DNA of 64,000 nucleotides from a virus (IMGVR_UViG_651053022_000004:1-64000); one strand, 5' to 3'. Counted from the stretch's first letter, positions 33,723 through 59,919 are shown. Made by a program: numbers and translations. Notes: generated by a model not told the origin, from the sequence alone.

Positions 33723-34217
33723 ATGAACCGTGTTCTGTGTGTGGTGATTATTGTCATGCTGGTAGCCTGTGGTGTGCTTAGTCTGGGGCTGAATCATTAC
33801 CGCGATAACGCCATCACCTACAAAGCGCAGCGCGATAAAAAAGTCAGTGAGCTGAAACTGGCGAATGCCACTATTACTGACATGCAGCAGCGCCAGCGAG
33901 ATGTCGCTGCGCTTGATGCCAGATACACGAAGGAATTAGCCGATGCGAGAGCTGAAAATGAAACTCTGCGCGCTGATGTTGCCGCTGGTCGTAAGCGCCT
34001 GCGGGTCAACGCCACCTGCCCCGGTACCGTGCGTGAAGCCACCGGCACCTCCAGCGTGGATAATGCAACCGGCCCCCGACTGGCAGACACCGCTGAACGG
34101 GATTATTTCATCCTCAGAGAACGGTTGATGACAATGCAGAAGCAGCTGGAAGGGGCGCAGGAATATATCCGCACTCAGTGCACTAAGCTGGCTTTTTATT
34201 ATCCGGAGGATACATGA
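33723..34217 (+). CDS. Rz-like inner-membrane spanin, copy B (intact)
   Basis: Start at [21 protein letters not shown]...; Rz-like coiled-coil region; contains an embedded Rz1-like ORF. Confidence 0.8.
33943..34128 (+). CDS. Rz1-like outer-membrane lipoprotein spanin, copy B
   Basis: 61-aa ORF ([39 protein letters not shown]...) embedded in Rz in the +1 frame. Confidence 0.8.
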
Positions 34218-35525: not shown

Positions 35526-36089
35526 GTGCTGACAACGCAAAAACGAAAATTTGCGCTGGCGCTCATGTCCGGGAAAAACAAAACAGCGTCAGCCATTGCC
35601 GCCGGTTATTCGGCGAAGACCGCCAGGGTTAAAGGCTCGCAGCTGGCAAAAGATCCTGAGGTGCTTGCGTTTATAGCCCGTAAACAATGCGAGACGGTGG
35701 AGGTGGATGAGGTTCCTGTTTACCGGCAGAAAAAATCAGAGCAGGAGGATAAACCCCGTCGCCGTGAGGCGGCTGCAATACCACAGCCGGACGAAAACAA
35801 TCTGGAGATGCCACCGTCCGCGGTGATGTCTCCTGGTATTGAATATATGGAGGATGGTCTTCCCGATCCGGTGAAAGCCATGGGGCGGATCCTGGTGGAA
35901 AACCTCTGCATTGATCCGAAACTGGCACTGGATGCGGCCTGGCGTCTGGCGCAGTTCACGCACCATAAAAAAGGGGATACCGGGAAAAAATCGGCAAAAG
36001 GTGATGCCGCGAAAAAAGCGGCTAACCGTTTTGCGGTGCCACCGCCCCCCCGACTGGTGGTGAATAACGATAATGAGGGCAACGGATGA
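35526..36089 (+). CDS. Terminase small subunit
   Basis: 187-aa ORF directly upstream of and overlapping the large terminase gene; N-terminal HTH-like region. Confidence 0.75.
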   Translation: MLTTQKRKFALALMSGKNKTASAIAAGYSAKTARVKGSQLAKDPEVLAFIARKQCETVEVDEVPVYRQKKSEQEDKPRRREAAAIPQPDENNLEMPPSAVMSPGIEYMEDGLPDPVKAMGRILVENLCIDPKLALDAAWRLAQFTHHKKGDTGKKSAKGDAAKKAANRFAVPPPPRLVVNNDNEGNG

Positions 36090-37747
36090 TACCTGTATGG
36101 AGCACAGCCTGCCCGGACTGGGCAGAGCGCCTGAAAAAGGGGCTGTCGATTATTCCGGATCCGATTTATCCGGACGAGGCCGCACATGCCCTGGCGATTT
36201 TTAAACAACTGCGGATTGTGGATGCACCTGGTAGCCCTACGTTCGGGGAGTCCTGTGCACCGTGGGTGTTTGACCTGGTGGCGGCCCTGTTTGGCTCCTA
36301 CGATGCGCAGACCGGTGTACGCCATATCAAGGAAGTTTTTATCCTTATCCCCAAGAAAAACTCGAAGTCCACGCTGGCCGCGGGGATCATGATGACTGCA
36401 CTGTTACTGAACTGGCGGCAGGCGGCGGGTTACACGATTCTGGCCCCGACTGTGGAGGTGGCGGCCAACGCCTTCAACCCTGCCCGGGATATGGTACGAC
36501 GTGACGATGATCTGGATGACCTCTGCCAGGTACAGACCCATATCCGGACCATCACCCACCGAGTGACGGACACCACCCTGAAGGTGGTGGCAGCCGATCC
36601 GAATACGGTGTCCGGTATCAAGTCCGTGGGTACGCTGATTGATGAGTTGTGGCTGTTTGGCAAGCAGTGCAAGGCGGAGGACATGTTACGTGAAGCCATA
36701 GGCGGCCTTGCCTCCCGCCCGGAAGGGTTTGTGGTGTATACGACCACCCAGTCGAATGAACCGCCCGCCGGGGTGTTCAGACAGAAACTGCAGTACGCCC
36801 GGGATGTGCGCGACGGCAAAATTCATGATCCGCACTTTCTGCCGGTGATATTTGAACACCCTCCTGAAATGGTGGAAAGCGGGACTAACCTGCTGATGGA
36901 AAACCTCGCCATGGTCAATCCGAATCTCGGCTATTCAGTGGATGAGGCCTTTCTGTACCGGGAGTACCGTAAAGCCCGGGAAGCCGGTGAAGAGACATTC
37001 CGGGGGTTCATGTCAAAACACGCCAATGTGGAAATTGGTCTTGCCCTGCGCTCTGACCGCTGGGCGGGGGCTGATTTCTGGGAAGAGCAGGGCCGTTGTA
37101 TCAGCCTGGACGATATCCTGCGTCGTGCTGATGTGGTGACGGTGGGGATTGACGGCGGAGGGCTGGATGATCTGCTGGGGATGTATGTGATTGGGCGTGA
37201 CCGGGAGACCCGCGAATGGCTGGGCTGGGGCCATGCCTGGGCGCATGAAACCGCGGTGGTCCGACGGAAGAGCGAGGCGTCCCGGTTTCAGGATCTTGTT
37301 GCCTGTGGAGATATGACCATTGTCCGGCGTGTCGGGGATGACACGGCGGAAGTGGCGGAATATGTGCGTCGCATTCATGAGGCTGAGTTACTGGACCATA
37401 TCGGTATTGACCCGTCAGGGGTGGGGCAGATTCTGGATTCACTGGCGGAAGCCGGGATCCCCGACGGAATTGTGGTGGGGATAAGCCAGGGCTGGAAACT
37501 GGGCGGGGCCATTAAAACCACCGAGCGCAAACTGGCTGAAGGGGTGCTGGTGCATGGTGACCAGCCCCTGATGGCCTGGTGTGTCGGCAATGCCCGGGTG
37601 GAGCCTAAAGGTAACGCCATTCTTATCACCAAACAGGCCAGTGGACGGGGAAAAATTGACCCGCTGATGGCGCTGTTCAATGCGGTCTCCCTGATGTCCC
37701 TTAACCCGGAACCGAAAAAGAAAGAATATGCGGTTTTTTTCATATAA
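36086..37747 (+). CDS. Terminase large subunit
   Basis: 553 aa; Walker-A-like ILIPKKNSKST; size and position typical. Confidence 0.85.
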   Translation: MIPVWSTACPDWAERLKKGLSIIPDPIYPDEAAHALAIFKQLRIVDAPGSPTFGESCAPWVFDLVAALFGSYDAQTGVRHIKEVFILIPKKNSKSTLAAGIMMTALLLNWRQAAGYTILAPTVEVAANAFNPARDMVRRDDDLDDLCQVQTHIRTITHRVTDTTLKVVAADPNTVSGIKSVGTLIDELWLFGKQCKAEDMLREAIGGLASRPEGFVVYTTTQSNEPPAGVFRQKLQYARDVRDGKIHDPHFLPVIFEHPPEMVESGTNLLMENLAMVNPNLGYSVDEAFLYREYRKAREAGEETFRGFMSKHANVEIGLALRSDRWAGADFWEEQGRCISLDDILRRADVVTVGIDGGGLDDLLGMYVIGRDRETREWLGWGHAWAHETAVVRRKSEASRFQDLVACGDMTIVRRVGDDTAEVAEYVRRIHEAELLDHIGIDPSGVGQILDSLAEAGIPDGIVVGISQGWKLGGAIKTTERKLAEGVLVHGDQPLMAWCVGNARVEPKGNAILITKQASGRGKIDPLMALFNAVSLMSLNPEPKKKEYAVFFI

Positions 37748-37810: not shown

Positions 37811-39748
37811 GTGACTCTTAAACGGGCCTGTTCCCTGCTGACGGTGAAATCCTTCAGTGAGGATGAACGGGTGATCACCGGGATTGCGTCAACGCCTTCT
37901 CCGGATCGGGATGGTGACATCCTGGAGCCGGAGGGCGCGGAGTTTGGCAGTGCGATCCCGTTTCTCTGGCAGCATGACCATTCCCGCCCGGTGGGGCAGT
38001 GTACGGTGCGCCGGGTCAGCGAAGGGCTGGAAATCACGGCAACACTGGTGAAGCCCGTACCGGATATGCCGTCGCAACTGGCTGCCCGGCTGGATGAGGT
38101 CTGGGCGGCCATTAAGACCGGGCTGGTCAGGGGGCTGTCCGTGGGCTTCCGTCCCCATGAATACACCTTTCTGGACGGAGGCGGACTGCATTTTCTGCGC
38201 TGGGAACTGATGGAGGTGTCTGCCGTCACCGTGCCCGCGAATGCGGAATGCACCATCCGGACCATTAAATCTTACGACCGCCCGTTTTCTGCCGCGTCCG
38301 GCAACCGGAAACCGGTGGTGAAAATCGCATCTTCTGCCGGCGCTGCGGCACAGTCAACAACCGTTTTTCATAAGGAAAAGACCATAATGAATATTGGCGA
38401 ACAGATTAAAAGTTTTGAAAACAAGCGTGCAGCGCTGGCAGCCTCCCTTGAGGAGGTCATGACCAAAGCCGCAGAGGAAGGGCGCACGCTGGATGTGGAG
38501 GAGGAAGAGCATTACGACAACACCGCAGCGGAAATCCGTCAGGTGGATGCGCACCTGAAGCGCCTGCGTGAACTGGAAGCCGGTAAGGCCGCCACGGCGC
38601 AGCCGGTGAAACAGGCCGGTAACGGGAATGTGGCCGCGGTGGCTTCTGCGCCGGTGATCCGTGTGGAGCAGAAACTGGATAAGGGGATTGGCTTCGCCCG
38701 CTTTGCCAAATCGCTGGCTGCGGCTAAAGGCGTCCGATCTGAAGCCCTGGAAGTGGCCCGTCGTCAGTATCCGGATGACAGTCGTCTGCATCATGTCCTG
38801 AAATCGGCAGTGGGCGCGGGGACCACCACGGATCCGCAGTGGGCAGGCAGCCTGTCTGAATATCAGGAATACGCACAGGACTTTATTGATTACCTGCGTC
38901 CGCAGACCATTATCGGGCGATTTGGTCAGGGCGGGATCCCTGCACTTCGTCAGGTGCCATTCAATATCCGTGTGCACGCCCAGGTGTCCGGCGGTGCTGC
39001 CGGCTGGGTGGGTGAGGGTAAGGCAAAACCCCTGACGAAGTTTGATTTTGAATCCATCACCTTCAGTCATGCGAAGGTGTCGGCCATTGCGGTACTGACG
39101 GAAGAATTGATCCGTTTTTCCAGTCCGGCTGCTGATGCACTGGTCCGTAATGCGCTGGCGGAAGCGGTGGTGGCGCGTCTGGATACAGACTTTGTGGACC
39201 CGAAAAAAGCCGCAGTGGCAGATGTCTCCCCGGCGTCCATCACCCATGATGTGAAGGGCACGGCATCAACCGGTAACCCGGATGCGGATGCAGAGGCTGC
39301 GTTTGGACAGTTTGTGGCAGCAAACCTGCAGCCCACCGGTGCGGTCTGGCTGATGTCCAGCACCAATGCCCTGGCACTGTCCATGCGTAAAAATGCGCTG
39401 GGTCAGAAGGAATACCCGGACATGACCCTGCTGGGTGGCTCCTTCCAGGGGCTGCCGGTGATTGTCTCCCAGTACGTGGGTGACCAGCTGGTGCTGGTGA
39501 ATGCCCCGGATATTTATCTGGCGGATGACGGCGGCGTGGCAGTGGATATGTCCCGCGAGGCATCACTGGAAATGCAGTCTGAGCCGACCGGCGACAGTAC
39601 CACGCCGTCCCCGGTGGAGCTGGTTTCCATGTTCCAGACAGGCAGCGTGGCCATCCGTGCGGAGCGCTGGATCAACTGGCGTCGTCGCCGTACTGCGGCG
39701 GTGGCGGTGATCACCGGAGTGAACTACGGCAGTGCGTCCGGCGGCTGA
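37811..39748 (+). CDS. Prohead protease - scaffold-like linker - HK97-fold major capsid protein fusion
   Basis: 645 aa; N-terminus (…GIASTPSPDRDGDILEP…) protease-like, central coiled-coil-like acidic segment, C-terminus capsid-like; paralogous to the separate protease and capsid of the third module. Confidence 0.75.
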   Translation: MTLKRACSLLTVKSFSEDERVITGIASTPSPDRDGDILEPEGAEFGSAIPFLWQHDHSRPVGQCTVRRVSEGLEITATLVKPVPDMPSQLAARLDEVWAAIKTGLVRGLSVGFRPHEYTFLDGGGLHFLRWELMEVSAVTVPANAECTIRTIKSYDRPFSAASGNRKPVVKIASSAGAAAQSTTVFHKEKTIMNIGEQIKSFENKRAALAASLEEVMTKAAEEGRTLDVEEEEHYDNTAAEIRQVDAHLKRLRELEAGKAATAQPVKQAGNGNVAAVASAPVIRVEQKLDKGIGFARFAKSLAAAKGVRSEALEVARRQYPDDSRLHHVLKSAVGAGTTTDPQWAGSLSEYQEYAQDFIDYLRPQTIIGRFGQGGIPALRQVPFNIRVHAQVSGGAAGWVGEGKAKPLTKFDFESITFSHAKVSAIAVLTEELIRFSSPAADALVRNALAEAVVARLDTDFVDPKKAAVADVSPASITHDVKGTASTGNPDADAEAAFGQFVAANLQPTGAVWLMSSTNALALSMRKNALGQKEYPDMTLLGGSFQGLPVIVSQYVGDQLVLVNAPDIYLADDGGVAVDMSREASLEMQSEPTGDSTTPSPVELVSMFQTGSVAIRAERWINWRRRRTAAVAVITGVNYGSASGG

Positions 39749-39792: not shown

Positions 39793-40014
39793 ATGGCAAA
39801 GATCCGATATCTGCAGGGCACGCATGATGCCCGGGCCGGGGATATCCGTGATGTGGCACAGCCGTGTGCGGAGGTGCTGGTTCGCCTGGGAAAGGCGGAG
39901 TACATCACGGTGCGACGTCCGGCAGGTCAGAAAAAGAAACGTGATGCGGAGCATGGCGAATGTGGAACCTTTTACGGCGAACCCGAAAAAACCAGAAATC
40001 AGGACGTGACGTAA
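39793..40014 (+). CDS. Hypothetical small protein between capsid and portal genes
   Basis: 73-aa ORF after a GGGAGGCGtgCGCCTCCC hairpin; overlaps the portal start. Confidence 0.3.
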   Translation: MAKIRYLQGTHDARAGDIRDVAQPCAEVLVRLGKAEYITVRRPAGQKKKRDAEHGECGTFYGEPEKTRNQDVT

Positions 40015-41636
40015 GAGAGGCGGGCTGGACCAGCCTGTTTCAGGCGGTGGCTGAGCCCTTTTCCGGCGCCTGGCAGCAGGGCGTGAAAGCCGATCCTGAA
40101 GCCGTCCTCTCCTTTCATGCGGTGTTTGCATGTATTTCGCTGATATCCCGGGATATCGCCAAAATGCGGCTGCGTCTTATGCAGACGGATGCGCATGGGA
40201 TACGCAGGGAAACGCGCCGGGGGGATATTGCCCGCCTCTGTCGTCGTCCCAACGCCCAGCAGAACCGCATCCAGTTTTTTGAACTGTGGCTGAACGCCAA
40301 ACTGCGTCATGGCAATACGGTGGTGCTGAAAATCCGTAATGCCCGGGGGCAGATCAAAGAACTGCGTATTCTGGACTGGAGCCGGGTTGAACCTCTGGTG
40401 GCGGATGACGGCGAGGTGTTCTACCGCATCACGCCGGACCGGAACTGCGGGATCACGGAGGCGGTGACGGTGCCTGCCCGGGAAGTGATCCACGACCGGT
40501 TTAACTGTTTTTTTCATCCGCTTATAGGATTGCCGCCGGTGTATGCCGCCGGGCTGGCGGCCACGCAGGGGCATCATATTCAGGAAAATTCGACGTCTTT
40601 TTTCAGAAATGGCGGCAGGCCGTCCGGGGTGATTGAGATCCCCGGCAGTATTACGGAAGAAAATGCGAAAAAACTGAAGAGCAACTGGGACAGCGGGTAT
40701 ACAGGCGAAAATGCGGGGAAAACGGCCATTCTGAGCAACGGGGCAAAATACAACCCCACGACGTTTTCACCTGTGGATGCGCAGACGGTGGAACAACTGA
40801 AGATGACCGCTGAAATTGTCTGTTCGGTGTTCCGTGTCCCGGCCTACAAGATTGGCGTGGGACAACCGCCTTCCAGTGACAACGTGGAGGCGCTGGAGCA
40901 GCAGTATTATTCCCAGTGCCTGCAGACGCTGATTGAGTCCATTGAACTGTTACTGGATGAGGCGCTGGAAACGGGGGAAAACGAGAGTACAGAATTTGAT
41001 GTCACCACGCTGCTGAGAATGGACAGTGAGCGGCGCATGAAAACGCTGGGGGATGCGGTGAAAAATACGCTTCTCACGCCCAATGAGGCCCGTAAACGGG
41101 AGAACCTGCCGCCCCTGGCCGGCGGTGATGCACTGTATCTTCAGCAGCAGAACTACAGTCTGGAGGCGCTGTCCCGTCGTGATGCCCGTGAGGATCCGTT
41201 CGCGTCTGCCGGGAAAACAGTTTCATCACAGCTGCCTGACGGCGCATCTGACGGTAATAAGGCAATCAGTGAAACAGAGCATGATGCGGTGAAAGCGATG
41301 TTCAGGGGGGATACTGAGAAAATGACGGAACGGGAACTGTCCATTATTCGTGCACTGGGAGAAGAATTCTCCACAGTGCTGGCGGATTTACAGCGCACAT
41401 TTGAGGGGAAGATGGCCTCGCAGGCACAAGCGTTTGAAGAGAAACTGACTTCCCTGTCGGCGGTATTACAGAAGCATGTGACGGTGGATGAGGTGCGTCC
41501 GGTTCTGCAGGCGATGGTGGATGACGCTGTGGGGGCCATTCCGGTACCGCGTGATGGTCGTGATTATGATCCGGATGTACTGCAGCATGGTGAAGGAGGC
41601 TGTAAGCCATATCCCTGTTCCGCGCGACGGTCGTGA
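39960..41636 (+). CDS. Portal protein (3' end enters a tandem-repeat region; start uncertain)
   Basis: 558 aa; colinear with the third-module portal (…FF(R)NGG…, …FNVPA/FRVPAYKIG…); its C-terminus carries the first PVPRDGRDYDPDVLQ unit. Confidence 0.7.
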   Translation: MWNLLRRTRKNQKSGRDVREAGWTSLFQAVAEPFSGAWQQGVKADPEAVLSFHAVFACISLISRDIAKMRLRLMQTDAHGIRRETRRGDIARLCRRPNAQQNRIQFFELWLNAKLRHGNTVVLKIRNARGQIKELRILDWSRVEPLVADDGEVFYRITPDRNCGITEAVTVPAREVIHDRFNCFFHPLIGLPPVYAAGLAATQGHHIQENSTSFFRNGGRPSGVIEIPGSITEENAKKLKSNWDSGYTGENAGKTAILSNGAKYNPTTFSPVDAQTVEQLKMTAEIVCSVFRVPAYKIGVGQPPSSDNVEALEQQYYSQCLQTLIESIELLLDEALETGENESTEFDVTTLLRMDSERRMKTLGDAVKNTLLTPNEARKRENLPPLAGGDALYLQQQNYSLEALSRRDAREDPFASAGKTVSSQLPDGASDGNKAISETEHDAVKAMFRGDTEKMTERELSIIRALGEEFSTVLADLQRTFEGKMASQAQAFEEKLTSLSAVLQKHVTVDEVRPVLQAMVDDAVGAIPVPRDGRDYDPDVLQHGEGGCKPYPCSARRS

Positions 41637-41910
41637 CTATGATCCCGATGTTCTGCAGAAGGCGGTGAATGATGCGGTCGCAAATATTCCGCAGCCGGCG
41701 GACGGTAAAAGTCTCACCCCGGATGATGTGCGTCCGATGCTTGAACAGATGGTGAAGGAGGCTGTAAGCCATATCCCTGTTCCGCGTGATGGTCGTGACT
41801 ACGATCCGGAAGTAGATGTGCGTCCGATGCTTGAACAGATGGTGAAGGAGGCGGTAAGCCATATTCATGTTCCGCGTGATGGTCGTGACTACGATCCGGA
41901 TGTTCTGCAG
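41539..41910 (+). repeat. Tandem coding repeats with PVPRDGRDYDPD units, including a perfect 90-nt tandem pair
   Basis: Units at ~41539, 41612, 41773 and 41863; 41731-41820 and 41821-41910 near-identical. Confidence 0.8.
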
Positions 41911-42384
41911 AAGGCGGTTCTGGATGCGGTGAGTGCCCTGCCGGCTCCGCAGGACGGGCGTGATGCCACGGCTCTGGAAATACTCCCCGCCATTGACGAT
42001 CAAAAATCCTTTCCCCGGGGCACGTATGCCACACACCAGGGCGGACTCTGGCGGGCGTATGAAAAAACGCACGGGATGCGGGGATGGGAATGCCTGGTTG
42101 ACGGGGTGGCGGATATTGACGTCAGCATGACGGGTGAGCGGTTGTTCTCTGTGGTGGTCCGGCAGAGCAGTGGCCAGCGTACGGAAAAAACATTTTCCCT
42201 GCCGGTGATGCTCTACCGCGGTGTGTTCAGAGCCGGTGAAACCTACCACCCCGGCGATACGGTGACGTGGGGGGGCTCGCTGTGGCACTGCAACAGTATG
42301 ACCGAAGATAAACCCGGAGAAGCTCATTCATCAGCCTGGACCCTGGCTGCAAAACGTGGGCGGGATGCAGGAGGCGGAAAATGA
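41587..42384 (+). CDS. Repeat-containing protein of unknown function (possibly once contiguous with the portal ORF)
   Basis: 266 aa starting MVKEAVSHIPVPRDGRDYDPDVLQKAV...; frame differs by one nucleotide from the portal ORF at ~41586. Confidence 0.45.
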   Translation: MVKEAVSHIPVPRDGRDYDPDVLQKAVNDAVANIPQPADGKSLTPDDVRPMLEQMVKEAVSHIPVPRDGRDYDPEVDVRPMLEQMVKEAVSHIHVPRDGRDYDPDVLQKAVLDAVSALPAPQDGRDATALEILPAIDDQKSFPRGTYATHQGGLWRAYEKTHGMRGWECLVDGVADIDVSMTGERLFSVVVRQSSGQRTEKTFSLPVMLYRGVFRAGETYHPGDTVTWGGSLWHCNSMTEDKPGEAHSSAWTLAAKRGRDAGGGK

Positions 42385-42707
42385 CGGCATTACTGACACT
42401 GGAAGAGATCAAGGCACATCTGCGTGTCGACCATGACGCGGATGATGACATGCTGATGGACAAGGTTCGTCAGGCTACCGCCGTGCTGCTGGCCTACATT
42501 CAGGGCAGCCGGGATAAAGTGATCCGTGAGGACGGTGAACTGATCCCGGGCGAGGCATTAACCCGGATGAAGGGGGCTGCCATGCGACTGACCGGGATGC
42601 TGTACCGGAATCCGGATCTTGCGGAGCGGGAAGAACTGCTTCAGGGGGAGCTGCCGTTTTCTGTTTCCGTGCTGATTTACGATTTGCGTTGTCCGACGGT
42701 GTTATGA
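42381..42707 (+). CDS. Head-tail connector (gp6-like)
   Basis: 108 aa; paralogue of 59996-60313; position after head genes. Confidence 0.6.
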   Translation: MTALLTLEEIKAHLRVDHDADDDMLMDKVRQATAVLLAYIQGSRDKVIREDGELIPGEALTRMKGAAMRLTGMLYRNPDLAEREELLQGELPFSVSVLIYDLRCPTVL

Positions 42708-51324: not shown

Positions 51325-53517
51325 ATGGGAAAAGGTGGCGGTAAGGCACACACGCCTCGTGAGGCGAAGGATAATCTCAAATCCACGCAGATGATGAGCG
51401 TGATTGATGCGATTGGTGAGGGACCGATAGAAGGTCCGGTGAAGGGACTGCAGAGTATTCTGGTGAACAAAACCCCACTGACGGACACGGACGGCAATCC
51501 CGTGATACACGGTGTGACGGCGGTCTGGCGCGCCGGGGAGCAGGAGCAGACACCACCGGAAGGCTTTGAGTCCTCCGGAGCTGAAACCGGACTGGGCGTG
51601 GAAGTGACGAAGGCAAAACCGGTGACGCGCACCATTACGTCCGCGAACATTGACCGCCTGCGGGTTACCTTCGGGGTGCAGTCACTGGTGGAGACCACCT
51701 CAAAGGGTGACCGTAACCCGGCATCCGTCCGCCTGCTGATTCAGTTACAGCGTAACGGTAACTGGGTGACAGAAAAGGACGTCACCATTAACGGCAAGAC
51801 CACCTCACAGTTCCTGGCCTCGGTGATTCTGGATAATCTGCCTCCCCGGCCCTTTAACATCCGGATGGTCAGGGAGACGGCGGACAGCACCACGGACCAG
51901 CTGCAGAATAAGACGCTGTGGTCGTCATACACCGAAATCATCGATGTGAAACAGTGCTACCCGAACACGGCCATTGTGGGGCTGCAGGTGGATGCGGAGC
52001 AGTTCGGCGGCCAGCAGATGACGGTGAACTACCATATCCGCGGTCGCATCATCCAGGTGCCGTCAAACTATGACCCGGAAAAACGCACGTATAGTGGTAT
52101 CTGGGACGGCAGTCTGAAACCGGCATACAGCAACAACCCGGCCTGGTGTCTGTGGGACATGCTGACTCACCCGCGCTACGGCATGGGAAAACGTCTGGGG
52201 GCGGCGGATGTGGACAAGTGGGCGCTGTATGCCATCGGGCAGTACTGCGACCAGACGGTCCCGGATGGTTTCGGGGGGACCGAGCCGCGGATGACCTTTA
52301 ATGCGTACCTGGCACAACAGCGTAAGGCGTGGGACGTTCTCAGTGATTTCTGCTCTGCGATGCGCTGTATGCCGGTATGGAACGGTCAGACGCTGACGTT
52401 CGTTCAGGACCGCCCGTCGGATGTGGTGTGGCCGTACACCAACAGCGATGTGGTGGTGGATGATAACGGCGTGGGATTCCGCTACAGCTTCAGTGCCCTG
52501 AAGGACCGGCACACGGCGGTGGAGGTGAATTACACCGACCCGCAGAACGGCTGGCAGACCTCCACGGAACTGGTGGAAGACCCGGAAGCCATACTGCGCT
52601 ACGGACGCAACCTGCTGAAGATGGACGCGTTCGGCTGTACCAGCCGCGGTCAGGCCCACCGTGCCGGACTGTGGGTGATAAAGACCGAACTGCTGGAAAC
52701 GCAGACGGTGGATTTCACGCTCGGGTCTCAGGGGCTGCGGCACACACCCGGTGACATTATTGAAATCTGTGATAATGACTATGCCGGGACCCTGACCGGC
52801 GGACGTGTCCTGTCCATTGATGCTGCCACCCGCACCCTGACGCTGGACCGTGAGGTTACCCTGCCGGAGACAGGTACATCGGCGGTGAACCTGATTAACG
52901 GCAGCGGTAAGCCGGTGAGTGTGGACATCACCGCACACCCCGCGCCGGACCGGATACAGGTCAGTACCCTGCCTGATGGTGTGGAGACATACGGGGTGTG
53001 GGGACTCTCCCTGCCGTCACTGCGCCGTCGCCTGTTCCGCTGTGTCTCCATCCGGGAAAACACGGACGGCACCTTTGCCATCACGGCGGTGCAGCACGTA
53101 CCGGAAAAAGAAGCCATCGTGGATAACGGTGCCCGCTTTGAGCCGCAGTCAGGTTCCCTGAACAGCGTCATCCCACCGGCAGTGCAGCACCTGACGGTGG
53201 AGGTGAGCGCAGCTGACGGCCAGTATCTGGCGCAGGCGAAATGGGACACGCCGCGGGTGGTGAAGGGTGTGCGCTTCAGTCTGCGCCTGACCAGTGGTAA
53301 GGGAACGGATGCCAGACTGGTGACCACCGCCATCACCGCAGACACGGAGCACCGTTTCAGCGGCCTGCCGCTCGGGGAATACACCCTGACGGTGCGGGCG
53401 ATAAACAGCTATGGCCAGCAGGGTGAACCTGCCACCACCACCTTCCGGATTGCCGCACCGGCAGCACCGTCGCGGATTGAGCTGACGCCGGGCTATTTTC
53501 AGATAACTAAACGATAG
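51325..53517 (+). CDS. J: Host specificity/tail tip protein J, C-terminally truncated
   Basis: 730-aa product colinear with lambda J as I recall it up to …APAAPSRIELTPGYFQIT, then two codons and a stop supplied by repeat R1; the C-terminal third is absent. Confidence 0.85.
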   Translation: MGKGGGKAHTPREAKDNLKSTQMMSVIDAIGEGPIEGPVKGLQSILVNKTPLTDTDGNPVIHGVTAVWRAGEQEQTPPEGFESSGAETGLGVEVTKAKPVTRTITSANIDRLRVTFGVQSLVETTSKGDRNPASVRLLIQLQRNGNWVTEKDVTINGKTTSQFLASVILDNLPPRPFNIRMVRETADSTTDQLQNKTLWSSYTEIIDVKQCYPNTAIVGLQVDAEQFGGQQMTVNYHIRGRIIQVPSNYDPEKRTYSGIWDGSLKPAYSNNPAWCLWDMLTHPRYGMGKRLGAADVDKWALYAIGQYCDQTVPDGFGGTEPRMTFNAYLAQQRKAWDVLSDFCSAMRCMPVWNGQTLTFVQDRPSDVVWPYTNSDVVVDDNGVGFRYSFSALKDRHTAVEVNYTDPQNGWQTSTELVEDPEAILRYGRNLLKMDAFGCTSRGQAHRAGLWVIKTELLETQTVDFTLGSQGLRHTPGDIIEICDNDYAGTLTGGRVLSIDAATRTLTLDREVTLPETGTSAVNLINGSGKPVSVDITAHPAPDRIQVSTLPDGVETYGVWGLSLPSLRRRLFRCVSIRENTDGTFAITAVQHVPEKEAIVDNGARFEPQSGSLNSVIPPAVQHLTVEVSAADGQYLAQAKWDTPRVVKGVRFSLRLTSGKGTDARLVTTAITADTEHRFSGLPLGEYTLTVRAINSYGQQGEPATTTFRIAAPAAPSRIELTPGYFQITKR

Positions 53518-53863: not shown

Positions 53864-53983
53864 CCTCTCCATTAGTGAGTTGTATTGATCACAACTCTAC
53901 AAAGAATTCATTACTGGGTAGATGAAAATAGTTTCACTATGAATGGAGGAGGCTATGTCGGTGGCTTCTTCATTGGAGTACAT

Positions 53984-54334
53984 ATGCCCCCACGAATCCC
54001 ACGCGCCTGCCGTAAGCGTGGATGTGCAGGTACAACCACAGACAGTTCTGGTTACTGCGATAAACATCGTGGCGAAGGATGGGTACAGCATCAACGCGGA
54101 CTGAGCCGCCACCAGCGTGGCTATGGCTCGAAATGGGATGCCATACGTGCGCGCATACTGAAGCGTGATAATCATCTGTGTCAGAACTGCCTGCGCAATG
54201 GGAGAGCCGTTGAAGCCAGAACTGTGGACCACATCATTCCGAAAGCTCATGGTGGCACGGATGCAGACAGTAACCTGCAGAGTCTGTGCTGGCCCTGTCA
54301 TAAAGCAAAAACAGCGCGCGAACGCATCAATTGA
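53984..54334 (+). CDS. HNH endonuclease (start at internal ATG) upstream of terS
   Basis: Product MPPRIPRACRKRGCAGTTTDSSGYCDKHRGEG... with …DHIIPKAHGG…N…CWPCH… motif arrangement. Confidence 0.8.
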   Translation: MPPRIPRACRKRGCAGTTTDSSGYCDKHRGEGWVQHQRGLSRHQRGYGSKWDAIRARILKRDNHLCQNCLRNGRAVEARTVDHIIPKAHGGTDADSNLQSLCWPCHKAKTARERIN

Positions 54335-54481
54335 TAACAGTTCCCATCTGTAGGGGAGGGGCAGGCCAAATCTCTGCAACCCTGGCTGCTCAGTACCGCC
54401 GCCTGACCTTTCCTCGCATCGCCGCAGGTTCGAAAACTTTTTTTTGGAATGTGATTAAATGATTGATAGGTAAAACCGATT

Positions 54482-54964
54482 ATGTCTGGACCCCCGAAAA
54501 CCCCGCCACGCCTGCATTTGATACGAGGCAACCCCTCAAAGCGGCCAGTTAAAGACCTCAAAAAAACCGCTAAAAAGGATGAAAAAGGTCTCCCTAAAAT
54601 TCCGCAACATTTAGGGGCGCAGGGGAAGTACTGGTTCAGGCGAATGGCGGAAGAGCTGAATGCGGAAGGGATCATTTCTCAGCTTGATGCGCGTGCGCTT
54701 GAGCTACTGGTGGAAGCCTATACCGAATACCGGCATCACTGCGAAACACTCGATGTTGAGGGGTACACCTACCGCTCGAAAACGCAGAACGGTGATGTGC
54801 TGATTAAGGCACACCCGGCTGCTGCGATGAAAGCGGATGCCTGGAAGCGGATCCGGGCGATGCTTGCAGAATTTGGTATGTCACCGGCAAGCCGGGCAAA
54901 AGTAAATACCGCCGGACCGGATAATGTTGATCCGCTGGCAGAGCTTTTAAAAGCGAGAGACTGA
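54482..54964 (+). CDS. Terminase small subunit (P27-like)
   Basis: 160-aa ORF directly upstream of and abutting the large terminase gene. Confidence 0.75.
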   Translation: MSGPPKTPPRLHLIRGNPSKRPVKDLKKTAKKDEKGLPKIPQHLGAQGKYWFRRMAEELNAEGIISQLDARALELLVEAYTEYRHHCETLDVEGYTYRSKTQNGDVLIKAHPAAAMKADAWKRIRAMLAEFGMSPASRAKVNTAGPDNVDPLAELLKARD

Positions 54965-56721
54965 TGGCAAAAGTGGCTGACGGGATCCGCTACGCCGAAC
55001 GTGTTGTTGCAGGAGAAATTGTTGCTGGCGAATTTGTCCGCCTGGCCTGCCAGCGTTTTCTTGATGATCTGAAGTACGGCGAAAAGCGGGGGATTTATTT
55101 CAGTGAACCCCGTGCGCAGCACATCCTGAATTTCTACAAATTTGTGCCTCATGTAAAAGGGGCACTGGCAGGCCAGCCCATTGAGTTGATGGACTGGCAT
55201 GTATTTATCCTCATTAATATTTTTGGTTTTGTCATTCCGCTGGTCAATGAAGAAACCGGGGAAGTTGTCATGCGCAGCGATGGCAGCGGACGTCCGGTGA
55301 TGGTGCGCCGGTTCCGGACGGCGTACAACGAAGTCGCCCGTAAAAACGCAAAATCAACCCTGTCATCGGGTATCGGCCTGTATATGACGGGGGCAGATAG
55401 TGAAGGCGGAGCTGAGGTGTATTCAGCCGCAACCACGCGTGACCAGGCCAGAATCGTGTTTGAAGACGCCAAAAATATGGTCAGAAAAGCCCGGTCGACA
55501 CTCGGGCGGTTGTTTGATTTCAACAAGCTGGCGATTTACCAGGAGCAGAGCGCATCAAAATTTGAACCGCTTTCCTCGGATGCAAACAACCTGGACGGTC
55601 TGAACATCCACTGCGCCATTATTGATGAGCTGCATGCACATAAAACCCGCGACGTGTGGGACGTTCTGGAAACGGCAACCGGTGCCCGTCTGCAGTCCCT
55701 GTTATTTGGTATCACCACGGCTGGCTTTAACAAGGAAGGGATTTGTTACGAGCAGCGTGATTACGCCATCAAGGTATTGCGAGGCTATAACAGCGACGTG
55801 GAGGGCGCTGTAAAAGACGACTCTTACTTTGCGATCATTTACACGCTTGATGAGGGAGATGATCCGTTTGATGAAACGGTCTGGCAGAAAGCGAATCCTG
55901 GCCTGGGCATCTGTAAACGCTGGGATGATCTGCGTCGTCTGGCGAAAAAAGCGAAGGAGCAGGTCTCTGCGCGGGTGAATTTTTTTACCAAACACATGAA
56001 TGTGTGGGTCACTGCCGAATCTGCCTGGATGGATATGATTAAGTGGGAGAAGTGCGAATACATTGCTCCACAACATGAGCTGAAAACATATCCCATGTGG
56101 GTCGGCGTCGACCTTGCTCATAAGATTGATATCTGTGCGGCGGCAAAACTCTGGCGAACCGATAACGGACATGTTCATGCTGATTTTAAATTCTGGCTTC
56201 CGGAAGGACGGCTGGAACGATGCTCGCGGCAGCAGGCAGAACTTTACCGGAAGTGGGCGGAGATGGATAAGCTCATCCTGACGGATGGTGATGTTATCGA
56301 TCATGCTCAGATAAAAAGTGACTTACTGGAATGGATTGGCGGTGAAAACCTCAGGGAACTGGGATTTGACCCGTGGAGCGCAATGCAGTTCAGTCTGGCA
56401 CTGGCTGAAGAAGGGATACCGCTGGTGGAGGTTCCGCAGACGGTCCGCAATCTGTCAGAGGCCATGAAGGAAACGGAATCACTGGTTTATGCCGGGCGTT
56501 TCCATCACAGCAATCATCCGGTCATGAACTGGATGATGTCTAACGTTACTGTAAAACCGGACAAAAACGACAACATCTTCCCGAATAAATCCACGCCGGA
56601 AGCCAAAATCGACGGCCCTGTTGCGCTTTTTACAGCCATGAGCCGCTTTCTGGTAAATGGCGGGGGCGTGAATGACTTTCTGTCCACGCTTGATCCTGAT
56701 GAGGACCTGTTAATTCTGTGA
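54964..56721 (+). CDS. Terminase large subunit
   Basis: 585 aa; Walker-A-like VARKNAKST; followed by the portal gene. Confidence 0.85.
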   Translation: MAKVADGIRYAERVVAGEIVAGEFVRLACQRFLDDLKYGEKRGIYFSEPRAQHILNFYKFVPHVKGALAGQPIELMDWHVFILINIFGFVIPLVNEETGEVVMRSDGSGRPVMVRRFRTAYNEVARKNAKSTLSSGIGLYMTGADSEGGAEVYSAATTRDQARIVFEDAKNMVRKARSTLGRLFDFNKLAIYQEQSASKFEPLSSDANNLDGLNIHCAIIDELHAHKTRDVWDVLETATGARLQSLLFGITTAGFNKEGICYEQRDYAIKVLRGYNSDVEGAVKDDSYFAIIYTLDEGDDPFDETVWQKANPGLGICKRWDDLRRLAKKAKEQVSARVNFFTKHMNVWVTAESAWMDMIKWEKCEYIAPQHELKTYPMWVGVDLAHKIDICAAAKLWRTDNGHVHADFKFWLPEGRLERCSRQQAELYRKWAEMDKLILTDGDVIDHAQIKSDLLEWIGGENLRELGFDPWSAMQFSLALAEEGIPLVEVPQTVRNLSEAMKETESLVYAGRFHHSNHPVMNWMMSNVTVKPDKNDNIFPNKSTPEAKIDGPVALFTAMSRFLVNGGGVNDFLSTLDPDEDLLIL

Positions 56722-56879
56722 AACAGCTTATTACTGATATGACCGGGCTGATCGGTTTCGGTCTGCTCACTGCTGGCGTTTATCTGTATGCAGGTCTGCC
56801 AGCGTCTCTGATGCTGTCTGGCTGTTTGTTGCTGCTTTATGCACTGGTGGTGTCCATGAGGAGAAAACATGCTTCTTGA
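56718..56879 (+). CDS. Small membrane protein (tentative)
   Basis: 53-codon ORF (GTG start) VKQLITDMTGLIGFGLLTAGVYLYAGLPASLMLSGCLLLLYALVVSMRRKHAS between terL and portal. Confidence 0.25.
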   Translation: MKQLITDMTGLIGFGLLTAGVYLYAGLPASLMLSGCLLLLYALVVSMRRKHAS

Positions 56880-58095
56880 TGCTCTGTTTCGCAGTGAGCC
56901 TCTGGAAAATCCCTCGGTTCCGGTAACCGGAGAGGCCGCAGAGACGGATAATATTTTTGCCCGGGATGTGTATGTCAGTCCGGAAACGTCCATGAGGCTG
57001 GCTGCTGTCTATGCCTGTATTTATGTTATTTCATCCAGTGTGGCTCAGATGCCCCTGCATGTGATGCGAAAAACGAATGAGCATGTTCAGCCGGCACGCG
57101 ATCACCCGTTGTTCTGGCTCGTTCATGATGAACCGAATGCCTGGCAGACCAGCTATAAGTGGCGGGAACTGAAGCAGCGTCATGTGCTGGGGTGGGGCAA
57201 TGGTTATACGTGGGTGAAACGTAATCGTCGTGGCGAGGTTACCAGTCTTGAATGCTGTATGCCATGGGAAACCACGTTACTTAACACCGGAGGGCGTCAT
57301 ACCTACGGTGTGTATAACGAAGAGGGTGCATTTGCGGTAAGTCCGGACGACATGATCCATATCAGGGCGCTGGGAAACAATCAGAAAATGGGACTGAGTC
57401 CGATCATGCAGCATGCTGAAACCATTGGTATGGGAATGAGTGGTCAGCAGTATACCAGTGCTTTTTTTAACGGTAATGCCCGTCCTGCCGGGATTATTTC
57501 TGTGAAAAATGAACTGAACGAACAGAGTTGGAGCAGGCTCAAGAATATGTGGCAGCGGGCGGTGACAGCGCTTCGCAGCCAGGAAAATAAAACCATGTTG
57601 CTGCCTGCGCAACTGGATTACCGCGCTCTGACAGTTTCTCCGGTGGATGCTCAGATCATTGATATGACCAAGCTGAACCGGTCGATGATTGCCGGGATTT
57701 TTAATGTCCCGGCGCACATGATTAATGACCTGGAAAAAGCCACATTTTCGAATATTACGCAGCAGGCGATTCAGTTTGTTCGCTACACGATGATGCCCTG
57801 GGTTGCGAACTGGGAGCAGGAGCTTAACCGTCGCCTGTTTACCCGTACAGAACGGGCTGCCGGGTATTACGTTCGTTTCAACCTCACGGGGTTGCTCCGT
57901 GGGACCCCACAGGAGCGTGCGCAGTTCTATCACTTTGCCATTACAGATGGCTGGATGAGTCGGAATGAAGCCAGGGCATTTGAGGATATGAACCCGGTTG
58001 ACGGTCTGGATGAAATGCTGGTCAGCGTAAATGCAGCAAATCCGTTGAATAACTTTAAAGATACGAAAGGCAAAGAGGAAAAGAACGATGAATGA
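56869..58095 (+). CDS. Portal protein (HK97-type)
   Basis: 408 aa; position after terL and before the prohead protease. Confidence 0.85.
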   Translation: MLLDALFRSEPLENPSVPVTGEAAETDNIFARDVYVSPETSMRLAAVYACIYVISSSVAQMPLHVMRKTNEHVQPARDHPLFWLVHDEPNAWQTSYKWRELKQRHVLGWGNGYTWVKRNRRGEVTSLECCMPWETTLLNTGGRHTYGVYNEEGAFAVSPDDMIHIRALGNNQKMGLSPIMQHAETIGMGMSGQQYTSAFFNGNARPAGIISVKNELNEQSWSRLKNMWQRAVTALRSQENKTMLLPAQLDYRALTVSPVDAQIIDMTKLNRSMIAGIFNVPAHMINDLEKATFSNITQQAIQFVRYTMMPWVANWEQELNRRLFTRTERAAGYYVRFNLTGLLRGTPQERAQFYHFAITDGWMSRNEARAFEDMNPVDGLDEMLVSVNAANPLNNFKDTKGKEEKNDE

Positions 58096-58687
58096 CCGTG
58101 AAACGCGCTGTTACAGCGGGGAGGTGCGGGCGGAACAATATGATAATGCCCCGACCCACATTCTGGGCTATGGCTCGGTATTTAACAGTCGTTCAGAACC
58201 TCTGTGGGGATTTCGTGAAATCATCAAGCCGGGGGCTTTTGATGATGTACTGAATGATGATGTACGTGGCTTGTTTAATCATGATCCTAATTTCATTCTC
58301 GGACGAAGTTCTGCCGGCACGTTGTCATTGTCGGTGGATGAACGCGGTTTACGTTATGACATTGTTGCACCGGATACTCCGACTATTTGTGACCTGGTGC
58401 TATCTCCAATGTTGCGTGGTGACATTAATCAGTCCTCGTTCGCGTTTCGTGTCGCCCGTGACGGAGAGAGCTGGTATGAAGACGACGAGGGGATTGTTAT
58501 CCGGGAAATCACGCGCATTTCTCGTCTGTATGACGTCAGCCCGGTGACATATCCGGCCTATCAGGACGCAGACTCTGGTGTCCGCTCAATGAAAGCCTGG
58601 CAGGAAGCGCGGGCGAGTGGTGCGCTGAAGAAAGCTGTTAACGAACGAATGGCGCGTGAGCGTCTTTTGACCCTTCTTAATGCATAA
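58088..58687 (+). CDS. Prohead protease (HK97-type)
   Basis: 199 aa between portal and capsid genes; similar to the N-terminal domain of the fusion ORF at 37811. Confidence 0.8.
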   Translation: MNDRETRCYSGEVRAEQYDNAPTHILGYGSVFNSRSEPLWGFREIIKPGAFDDVLNDDVRGLFNHDPNFILGRSSAGTLSLSVDERGLRYDIVAPDTPTICDLVLSPMLRGDINQSSFAFRVARDGESWYEDDEGIVIREITRISRLYDVSPVTYPAYQDADSGVRSMKAWQEARASGALKKAVNERMARERLLTLLNA

Positions 58688-58701
58688 GGATACTACTGAC
58701 G

Positions 58702-59919
58702 ATGAAACTTCATGAGATGAAGCAAAAACGAAACACCATTGCAAAGGATATGCGTGCACTGCATGAAAAAATTGGTGATAACGCATGGACTGATGAGCAA
58801 CGGGCAGAGTGGAACAGGGCGAAAGCTGAGCTGGATGCGCTGGATGAGCAAATCGCCCGTGAAGAAGAGTTGCGCCGTCAGGATCAGGCATATGTGGATG
58901 AGTCCGGGCCGGAAGAGCGCCAGAATAATGAGGCGGAGAACGGGAAAAAGGCGGTGGAAGAGAAGCGCGCTGCGGCATTTAACCGTTTTCTGCGTGCCGG
59001 ATTTGCAGAACTGAATGCTGAAGAGCGTAATCTGATGCGTGAACTGCGGGCTCAGAGTGTAACAACGGATTCTCAGGGCGGATATACGGTGCCCACGCAG
59101 ATGCGTAACAAAATCATTGACACCATGAAGGCTTATGGCGGGATTGCCAGTGTGGCGCAACTTCTGACCACATCAACCGGGCAGGATATCACCTGGTCAA
59201 CGTCTGATGGCACGACTGAAGAGGGCGAACTGCTGGCGGAAAATACAGCCGCAACGGAACAGGATGTGACGTTCGGGACCGCTATTCTGGGGGCTAAAAA
59301 GCTGTCATCAAAAATAATTCGTGTGTCCAATGAGCTGCTCCAGGACAGTGGGGTGGATATTGAATCTTATCTGGCAAACCGTATTGCCCAGCGTATTGGT
59401 CGTGGAGAGGCAAAATATCTGGTTCAGGGGACCGGAACGGGATCACCGTTACAGCCAAAAGGGCTGGCAGCGTCGGTGACGGGAACCATCCAGACTGTAG
59501 CCTCTGCCGCTTTCACCTGGAAAGAAATGAATGCCCTGAAACATGCCATTGATCCGGCATATCGTGGTGGGCCGAAATACCGCTGGGCATTCAATGATGC
59601 CACATTGCAGACTATTGAAGAGATGGAGGATGGACAGAAACGCCCGTTATGGCTGCCGGATATTGCAGGCGGTACGCCGGCTACTGTGCTGGGGATCCCT
59701 TATGTTATTGATCAGGCTATTGACGGGATTGGTACCGGAAAAAAATTCATTTTCCTGGGGGATTTCAACCGCTTTATCATTCGCCGCGTTACTTATATGG
59801 AACTGAAACGTCTGGTTGAGCGTTATGCTGAGTTTGATCAGGTGGCATTTCTGGCTTTCCATCGTTTTGACTGTGTGCTGGAAGATGTGGCAGCCATCAA
59901 GGCGCTCACTGGCAAATAA
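58702..59919 (+). CDS. Major capsid protein (HK97-fold) with N-terminal scaffold-like delta domain
   Basis: 405 aa; coiled-coil N-terminus (…RAEWNRAKAELDALDEQIAREEELRRQ…), position after protease. Confidence 0.85.
   Translation: MKLHEMKQKRNTIAKDMRALHEKIGDNAWTDEQRAEWNRAKAELDALDEQIAREEELRRQDQAYVDESGPEERQNNEAENGKKAVEEKRAAAFNRFLRAGFAELNAEERNLMRELRAQSVTTDSQGGYTVPTQMRNKIIDTMKAYGGIASVAQLLTTSTGQDITWSTSDGTTEEGELLAENTAATEQDVTFGTAILGAKKLSSKIIRVSNELLQDSGVDIESYLANRIAQRIGRGEAKYLVQGTGTGSPLQPKGLAASVTGTIQTVASAAFTWKEMNALKHAIDPAYRGGPKYRWAFNDATLQTIEEMEDGQKRPLWLPDIAGGTPATVLGIPYVIDQAIDGIGTGKKFIFLGDFNRFIIRRVTYMELKRLVERYAEFDQVAFLAFHRFDCVLEDVAAIKALTGK

Follow-up and report, generated by a model that had tools for sequence, protein, structure and literature searches.

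The window analyzed here, a stretch of 64,000 nucleotides, contains a prophage of the E. coli lambdoid, Stx-phage-like type. Between positions 34000 and 53507 it shares 99.9% identity over 19.5 kb with E. coli IPCEC48, IPCEC42, and TUM9975, and the alignment to these genomes is interrupted solely at a repeat array in the portal region. The portal gene sits in a head-morphogenesis operon beside the terminase, protease/capsid, and connector genes. The ORF list and annotation place the terminase large subunit (TerL) at 36086-37747 and a prohead protease-major capsid fusion at 37811-39748; on the plus strand there follow a truncated portal ORF (39960-41636), an overlapping ORF (41587-42384), and a gp6-like head-tail connector gene (42381-42707; recognized by Pfam Phage_connect_1 and by annotation in relatives). 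On the 3' side of the connector lie head-closure, gp10-like, gp17-like, major tail protein, tape measure, and lambda-type tail tip genes.

The portal ORF, identified from the ORF list, Pfam, and PHROG, is 558 aa long. Residues 54 to 382 match the Pfam family Phage_portal (PF04860) with 274 bits (E = 1.7e-81; cut-off, 39.1 bits), the HK97-type portal model TIGR01537 scores 349 bits in an intact relative, and the window protein aligns to positions 1 to 543 of the 859 positions of phrog_2271. Its make-up is composite: an HK97-type portal domain is followed by ~88 aa of the N-terminal region of a second protein (here called the partner), by a first repeat unit, and by a 16-aa tail. This tail, HGEGGCKPYPCSARRS, is out of frame and is closed by the TGA at 41634-41636, so that the C-terminal end of the ORF reads AIPVPRDGRDYDPDVLQ-HGEGGCKPYPCSARRS*. 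The initial annotation had the first repeat unit ending the portal ORF and the frame changing after DPDVLQ; the stop comes 16 codons after DPDVLQ. The gene of IPCEC48, by comparison, is a single 753-aa ORF annotated "phage portal protein," and single long portal ORFs are also found in Ecol_AZ161 (861 aa), phage 2851 (859 aa), and the Sakai prophage Sp12 (859 aa).

The overlapping ORF, also taken from the ORF list, is shifted by +1 with respect to the portal frame and begins MVKEAVSHIPVPRDGRDYDPDVLQKAV. The initial annotation gave a 266-aa C-terminal region; the ORF is recovered here at 265 aa, or 266 codons counting the stop, with its end at 42384; an ATGA overlap links that end to the start of the gp6-like connector gene. 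It contains the remaining repeats and a conserved C-terminal domain, and it does not include the conserved N-terminal coiled-coil region. No full-length homologues starting MVKEAVSH were found, the only proteins with this start being partial ones at contig ends. The anti-Shine-Dalgarno duplex predicted at the ATG at 41587 has an energy of -4.2 kcal/mol, while those of neighboring genes (gp6-like, head-closure, gp10-like, major-tail, and capsid) range from -10.3 to -12.8 kcal/mol. Since this ATG precedes the portal stop by 50 nt, coupling by termination-reinitiation is unlikely. The ORF lacks a credible ribosome-binding site and is probably silent. Low-level expression by reinitiation may nevertheless occur, a point that we count against the explanation preferred below.

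The two ORFs share a coding repeat array that occupies 472 nt between conserved anchors (41475-41946, plus strand), as delimited by anchor distances and by alignment to intact arrays. Its canonical unit is 162 nt, or 54 aa, and consists of two 27-aa half-units, of which the first reads IPVPRDGRDYDPDVLQkAVNDAVAN and the second IPQPADGKSLTPDDVRPMLEQMVKEAVSH. A repeat search found copies of a direct repeat of ~89 nt starting at 41490, 41563, 41725, and 41815, with 74 to 100% identity. Translation shows the motif (I)PVPRDGRDYDP(D/E)V at four places and, in addition, two degenerate P-x-DG units, in agreement with the four or five recurrences counted in the initial annotation. Both the length and the similarity of the repeats are far above chance. 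The 90-nt tandem pair, previously described as perfect, was located at 41725-41900 on the plus strand (2.0 copies) and proved to be 96% identical by TRF and the repeat search.

From anchor to anchor the array measures 309 nt in IPCEC48, 633 nt in three-unit alleles, and 472 nt in the window, the last value being the canonical register plus 1 nt. In the 62 loci of our IMG/VR census and in annotated genomes, the part of the ORF past the portal domain has lengths of 245, 299, 353, 407, 461, 515, or 569 aa. Because these length classes are separated by exact 54-aa steps, the array is a coding minisatellite (VNTR), with a copy number that is polymorphic by whole units and a reading frame that is kept. 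The stalk of the partner, encoded by this array, offers a clean case of such a VNTR within a phage structural gene.

Aligned with a three-unit allele (locus L003), which served as the reference for the junctions, the window array shows two deletions. Junction 1 (41586-41587, plus strand; from the alignment) is out of frame and lacks 89 nt, about half a repeat unit, relative to L003. It reads CTGCAGC|ATGGTG, with 1 nt of microhomology, and can equivalently be described as a loss of 90 nt plus a gain of 1 nt. The frame change had been ascribed to an extra c at ~41586; the base is a c and the frame does move by +1, but what lies there is an 89-nt junction and no plain indel. A single-base insertion in an otherwise collinear gene was rejected for the same reason, given that an 89-nt structural junction is present at the site and that no relative carries an in-frame version of it. 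Junction 2 (41813-41815, plus strand; likewise from the alignment) is an in-frame loss of 72 nt. It reads GAAGTA|GATGTG at ~41814, with DPEV|DVRPMLEQ in the protein, and the 90-nt tandem pair arises from it, as a 162-nt unit from which 72 nt have been deleted. In the window the unit variants follow one another as A1, A3-type, A2-type, A4, unlike those of L003, so two deletions from a known parent do not account for the whole history of the array, a complication for the explanation preferred below. The parent allele may have been a different or a longer one, and the frame arithmetic is independent of which parent is assumed.

Neither junction was found outside this sequence in the collections searched. 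Probes of 111 to 121 nt showed junction 1 to be intact in none of 5,426 complete E. coli genomes, and junction 2 was likewise absent from them; the best matches were always in two pieces, spaced by exactly 89 nt for junction 1 and by exactly 72 nt for junction 2. Exact scans gave 0 matches to junction 1 in the GTDB species representatives, IMG/VR, and the JGI metagenomes, and 0 matches to junction 2 in the GTDB representatives and IMG/VR. IMG/VR also contained no in-frame version of junction 1, none of 74 fetched loci and 269 fetched proteins carried either junction, and a collection of 15 billion proteins contained no exact copy of the 558-, 265-, or 298-aa products.

The natural boundary between portal and partner lies upstream of the array. 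A G6 homopolymer run at 41305-41310 (plus strand), recognized by comparison across loci, joins the portal frame to that of the next gene, whose native ATG, identified from stand-alone homologues, lies at 41322-41324 on the same strand (MTERELSIIRALGEEF...). In the window this ATG is in frame within the fused ORF; in relatives with a G5 run it overlaps the portal stop as ATGA. The G-run resembles a Shine-Dalgarno sequence for this start (-10.2 kcal/mol). All stand-alone homologues, whether from Klebsiella, Pantoea, Raoultella, Serratia, Shigella, or E. coli, begin M(N/T)EREL-S-I-I-x-A-x-GEEF. On sequence comparison, then, the long "portal" is itself a portal-partner fusion. In E. coli, copies with a G5 run have two genes, the portal ending LRGILRK*, and copies with a G6 run have the frames fused; 36 IMG/VR contigs have G6 and 26 have G5, and the separate-gene state is found in about 40% of E. 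coli copies. Overlaps of 4 nt between portal and partner are annotated in seven loci (L004, L006, L007, and L009-L012). Klebsiella and Serratia prophages of the same synteny have a portal of 449 to 453 aa followed by a separate gene of 400 to 402 aa, again with a 4-nt ATGA overlap. Because the tail LRGILRK* of the G5-frame portal matches LRGLLAK* of Klebsiella and TKGLLK* of Serratia, the two-gene arrangement is taken to be the ancestral state. Fusion has a parallel in a distant portal of 1237 aa (P0146, 36% identity), in which a linker of ~27 proline-rich repeats leads from an identical fusion boundary to the same C-terminal domain; the fusion is thus either recurrent or ancient, which suggests that portal and partner work together.

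We considered whether the G5/G6 run could act as a fast phase-variation switch or contingency locus and rejected this, as its state follows lineage: the haplotypes of G5 copies and those of G6 copies fall into distinct groups that differ by 23 to 34 substitutions per 770 nt, and only two flips (L060 and L063) were seen. A conserved -1 slip at A_AAA_UGA that would produce the fusion in G5 phages was also unsupported, the Klebsiella sequence GCU AAA UGA being unable to re-pair.

Comparison with known systems places the window gene among the long portals of E. coli lambdoid and long-tailed Stx prophages (phrog_2271; for example, WP_000267294.1 with 861 aa, ECs_2248 in Sp12, and EP2851_54). It is the same gene, with the same synteny of TerL, protease-capsid fusion, small ORF, portal, and gp6-like connector, 96 to 99.9% DNA identity, and a shared 54-aa repeat and C-terminal domain, whereas in the window copy the array is rearranged and an 89-nt out-of-frame junction, private to it, interrupts the gene. 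The Stx phages in which PGAP flags the gene as "frameshifted" or lists "portal protein (x2)" (for example, O157:H7 PNUSAE146744, Stx2a_WGPS2, Lys8385Vzw, and Stx2_EH1846) also carry this gene in two ORFs. Their split, however, is at the G5 run, where a portal of 455 aa ends in an ATGA shared with the start of an ORF of 407 aa, while that of the window is 265 nt further downstream, inside the array. What these flags and split annotations mark at the G5 run is probably the ancestral, functional two-gene state. Finally, stand-alone proteins of ~350 to 402 aa (phrog_1289) from Klebsiella, Pantoea, Raoultella, Serratia, Shigella, and E. coli have the same repeats, C-terminal domain, and genomic position, and they are 55 to 86% identical to the downstream ORF of the window over 98 to 100% of its length. 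Unlike that ORF, they possess an N-terminal coiled coil of ~70 to 100 aa and a start codon of their own.

The prophage shows a further lesion. Its tail-tip gene J encodes 730 aa, compared to 1157 aa in IPCEC48, and ends exactly where similarity to IPCEC48 stops (~53508); beyond it lies an unrelated HNH-TerS-TerL-portal-capsid module of another phage. With J truncated, the prophage is defective regardless of the portal lesion. The portal gene therefore has the marks of a pseudogene, namely a disruption that is absent from a 99.9%-identical relative, accompanied by independent decay (J and the foreign module). Disrupted copies of the portal-partner gene also occur among the 62 loci of the IMG/VR census, at different positions and by different means: a nonsense codon in L025, single-base shifts in L019, L053, L073, and L022/33/46, an IS insertion in L065, and out-of-register deletions of 180 nt and 50 nt within the array in L058. 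Such scattered lesions form a pattern of sporadic pseudogenization in which the repeat array is one fragile spot.

Taken together, these results make it probable that the portal-fiber fusion gene of an already defective prophage has been inactivated by an out-of-register deletion, private to this sequence, within its coding minisatellite. The number of 162-nt units in the array would shift by unequal recombination or slippage, and out-of-register deletions would occasionally strike the same array, the one at 41586|41587 having taken 89 nt. As 89 is not a multiple of three, the portal frame meets a stop 16 codons on, and the remaining repeats and the C-terminal beta domain would be left stranded in the +1 frame with no ribosome-binding site. 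The lesion is private and the prophage is missing the distal half of J, which argues for pseudogenization under relaxed selection. The earlier suggestion that a once-longer portal has acquired a frameshift mutation or a sequencing error is upheld to the extent that relatives are uninterrupted and the junction is unique to the window.

Which of these two it is bears on the first alternative, that the true array is in register, the portal fusion is intact, and the sequence has suffered a misassembly or consensus error. Tandem units at 96 to 100% identity are hard to assemble, both junctions are unique to this sequence, and the flanks are 99.9% identical to genomes with an intact gene, all of which such an artifact would explain. 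However, collapse of repeats in a k-mer graph occurs at shared k-mers and keeps the register, in multiples of 162 nt. Junction 1, with just 1 nt of microhomology, and junction 2, which likewise departs from the register, instead look like products of illegitimate deletion. An independent locus, L058, has the same type of lesion, and the prophage, with its truncated J, is defective on separate grounds. We infer that the lesion is a real mutation, misassembly being the less likely origin and, in our estimation, an unlikely one. Far less probable is a functional split into two genes, in which the 558-aa portal would be accompanied by a 265-aa protein translated separately from the ATG at 41587. 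It is true that this ATG exists and that the partner is naturally separate in many relatives, so that an unfused pair can work; to that extent the separate repeat protein proposed in the initial annotation is real. But where it is separate it starts 265 nt upstream, at the position of 41322, and never at 41587; there it overlaps the portal by ATGA and opens with the conserved M(N/T)EREL. None of the homologues compared shows the overlap seen here. A product initiated at 41587 would begin MVKEAVSH, a start with no homologue other than contig-end partials, and would be missing its N-terminal coiled coil. Its Shine-Dalgarno duplex would amount to only -4.2 kcal/mol, the portal stop 50 nt downstream would provide no coupling, and the portal itself would bear ~88 aa of the partner and a 16-aa nonsense tail.

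The remaining alternative, and the one we find hardest to credit, is a programmed +1 (or -2) ribosomal frameshift at CAG-C-AUG that would restore the full-length portal-fiber fusion. A +1 shift at 41586 would give a continuous repeat-protein frame, and an AGGAGG-like element lies nearby, at 41593-41599. That element is, however, downstream of the site, not upstream as in prfB, where a Shine-Dalgarno-like element precedes the shift site. The codons CUG CAG CAU GGU provide neither a slippery nor a hungry-codon context, and CUG CAG C AUG GUG offers no re-pairing option for a +1 or a -2 shift. Nor is the site conserved, as all intact homologues read the region in a single frame, and the programmed shift raised in the initial annotation can be set aside on these points. 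The G/GT chaperones of lambda and the HK97-like tail chaperones resemble the window in having two overlapping ORFs in a morphogenesis operon, but their sites are conserved, slippery heptamers that direct -1 shifts, and the window has none of these features. With an out-of-register deletion as the preferred reading, the annotation that suits the locus best is that of a portal(-fusion) pseudogene, disrupted and lying within a defective prophage, and neither that of a recoding site nor that of a new overlapping gene.

We also examined the partner protein that is interrupted here. Its conserved C-terminal all-beta domain of ~145 aa, delimited by homologue alignment and AF2, is encoded at 41938-42381 (plus strand) and has 66 invariant columns across genera. 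We found 5,512 representative homologues of this domain at E <= 1e-3, nearly all of them at the C terminus of stand-alone proteins of 200 to 500 aa. AF2 predicts a confident all-beta domain over residues 131 to 259 (pLDDT, 74 to 92), while the repeat region is modeled at pLDDT below 50, with helix-loop periodicity only. Pfam and Foldseek suggest a possible CBM5/12-like tip at about 42229-42297 on the plus strand. Pfam CBM_5_12 (PF02839) scores 22.5 bits in the window ORF, under the cut-off of 26.2 bits, and 28.6 bits, above the cut-off, in the homologue P0128, in which collagen triple-helix repeats replace the 27-aa repeats. In the PDB, Foldseek retrieved Serratia marcescens ChiB and chitin-binding domains with a probability of 1.0 and weak E values of ~0.03 to 0.1 over ~53 residues, as well as short, weak similarity to phage tail fibers. 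Against the predicted viral structures of BFVD, E values went down to 4e-13, for collagen-repeat, CBM5/12, ChiC_BD, and tail proteins. NCBIfam, a PDB sequence search, and a literature search yielded no functional name for the partner, and no solved structure in the PDB matches it by sequence.

The putative layout of a coiled-coil anchor, a length-variable stalk, and a small beta tip resembles that of a fiber or decoration protein. Collagen-stalked fiber or decoration proteins with CBM5/12 tips (BFVD "Collagen triple helix repeat") likewise combine an N-terminal anchor, a variable repetitive stalk, and a beta-rich C-terminal module, and SPP1 gp12, the phi29 head fiber gp8.5, and T4 fibritin offer possible functional analogies. 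It is conceivable, although we hold this only tentatively, that the partner is a widespread virion fiber, with a coiled coil docking at the portal vertex, a minisatellite-tuned stalk (built in different lineages from 27-aa helix-loop units, Pro-rich units, or collagen), and a tip that resembles CBM5/12 and binds glycans, and that it is made either separately or fused to the portal, with a single-G toggle between the two states in E. coli phages. In solved portals the C terminus points into the capsid interior, and for this reason an external fiber is hard to reconcile with a portal fusion. If the proposal were true, HK97-like siphophages would possess a portal-vertex appendage of a new class, and the "portal" annotations of thousands of proteins would be wrong.

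Whatever its role, the partner of ~350 to 400 aa is routinely misnamed "portal" or "gp6-like connector." The PHROG families concerned, phrog_2271 and phrog_1289, offer for both the label "portal" only, which has been transferred. In individual entries, the phrog_1289 proteins go by the names "phage portal protein," "gp6-like head-tail connector protein," or "Carbohydrate binding domain."

The fusion of the portal to its fibre-like partner turns on a single homopolymeric run: the internal ATG at position 41322 of the window has a run of six G residues (G6) 11 nt upstream (run and ATG together span 41305-41324). In relatives with five (G5), the 455-aa portal and its ~407-aa partner are encoded by separate genes that overlap by ATGA, and the ~860-aa "portal" is the product of both genes joined via G6. 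PGAP marks genes in the G5 arrangement as "frameshifted"; despite this flag, cross-genus sequence comparison indicates that the two-gene state is probably the ancestral one. A stop/start overlap motif, AAAATGACGG, is common to both junctions flanking the partner gene (41318-41327 and 42377-42386).

The stand-alone partner protein is 350-402 aa long (P0026-P0093, homologues from Klebsiella, Pantoea, and Serratia; loci L009-L012, 4001-5209), and its name differs by source, being "phage portal protein," "phage gp6-like head-tail connector protein," or "Carbohydrate binding domain." Because this protein contains neither a portal domain nor a connector domain, these names seem to have been carried over during annotation from genes that are fused to it or lie next to it. 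A distant portal of 1237 aa (P0146, 36% identity) is fused to the same C-terminal beta domain at the same boundary, and its stalk consists of about 27 proline-rich repeats of ~20 aa (LPxPEPLPDIxxMVxxAVxxI) that replace the 27-aa DG repeats.

Other copies of the portal-partner gene have been inactivated, one by an IS3-family insertion (L065, IMG/VR 2728369393_000008) and another by out-of-register deletions of 180 and 50 nt within the repeat array (L058, 2534681992_000016).

Upstream of the portal gene, a single 645-aa ORF (37811-39748) joins a prohead protease (Peptidase_S78) to a major capsid protein (Phage_capsid). The placement of this ORF ahead of the portal gene, which is also kept in the Klebsiella and Serratia relatives, is the opposite of the order in HK97.

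The tail-tip gene J (51325-53517) ends at 730 aa, versus 1157 aa in the close relative E. coli IPCEC48 (99.9% identity), and its end coincides exactly with the loss of similarity to that relative (~53508). An unrelated phage module follows (53885-59919), with genes for an HNH endonuclease, TerS, a 585-aa TerL, a portal of 408 aa, and a capsid protein. The truncated J and the foreign module reflect prophages that lie in tandem or have recombined, or else a deletion.
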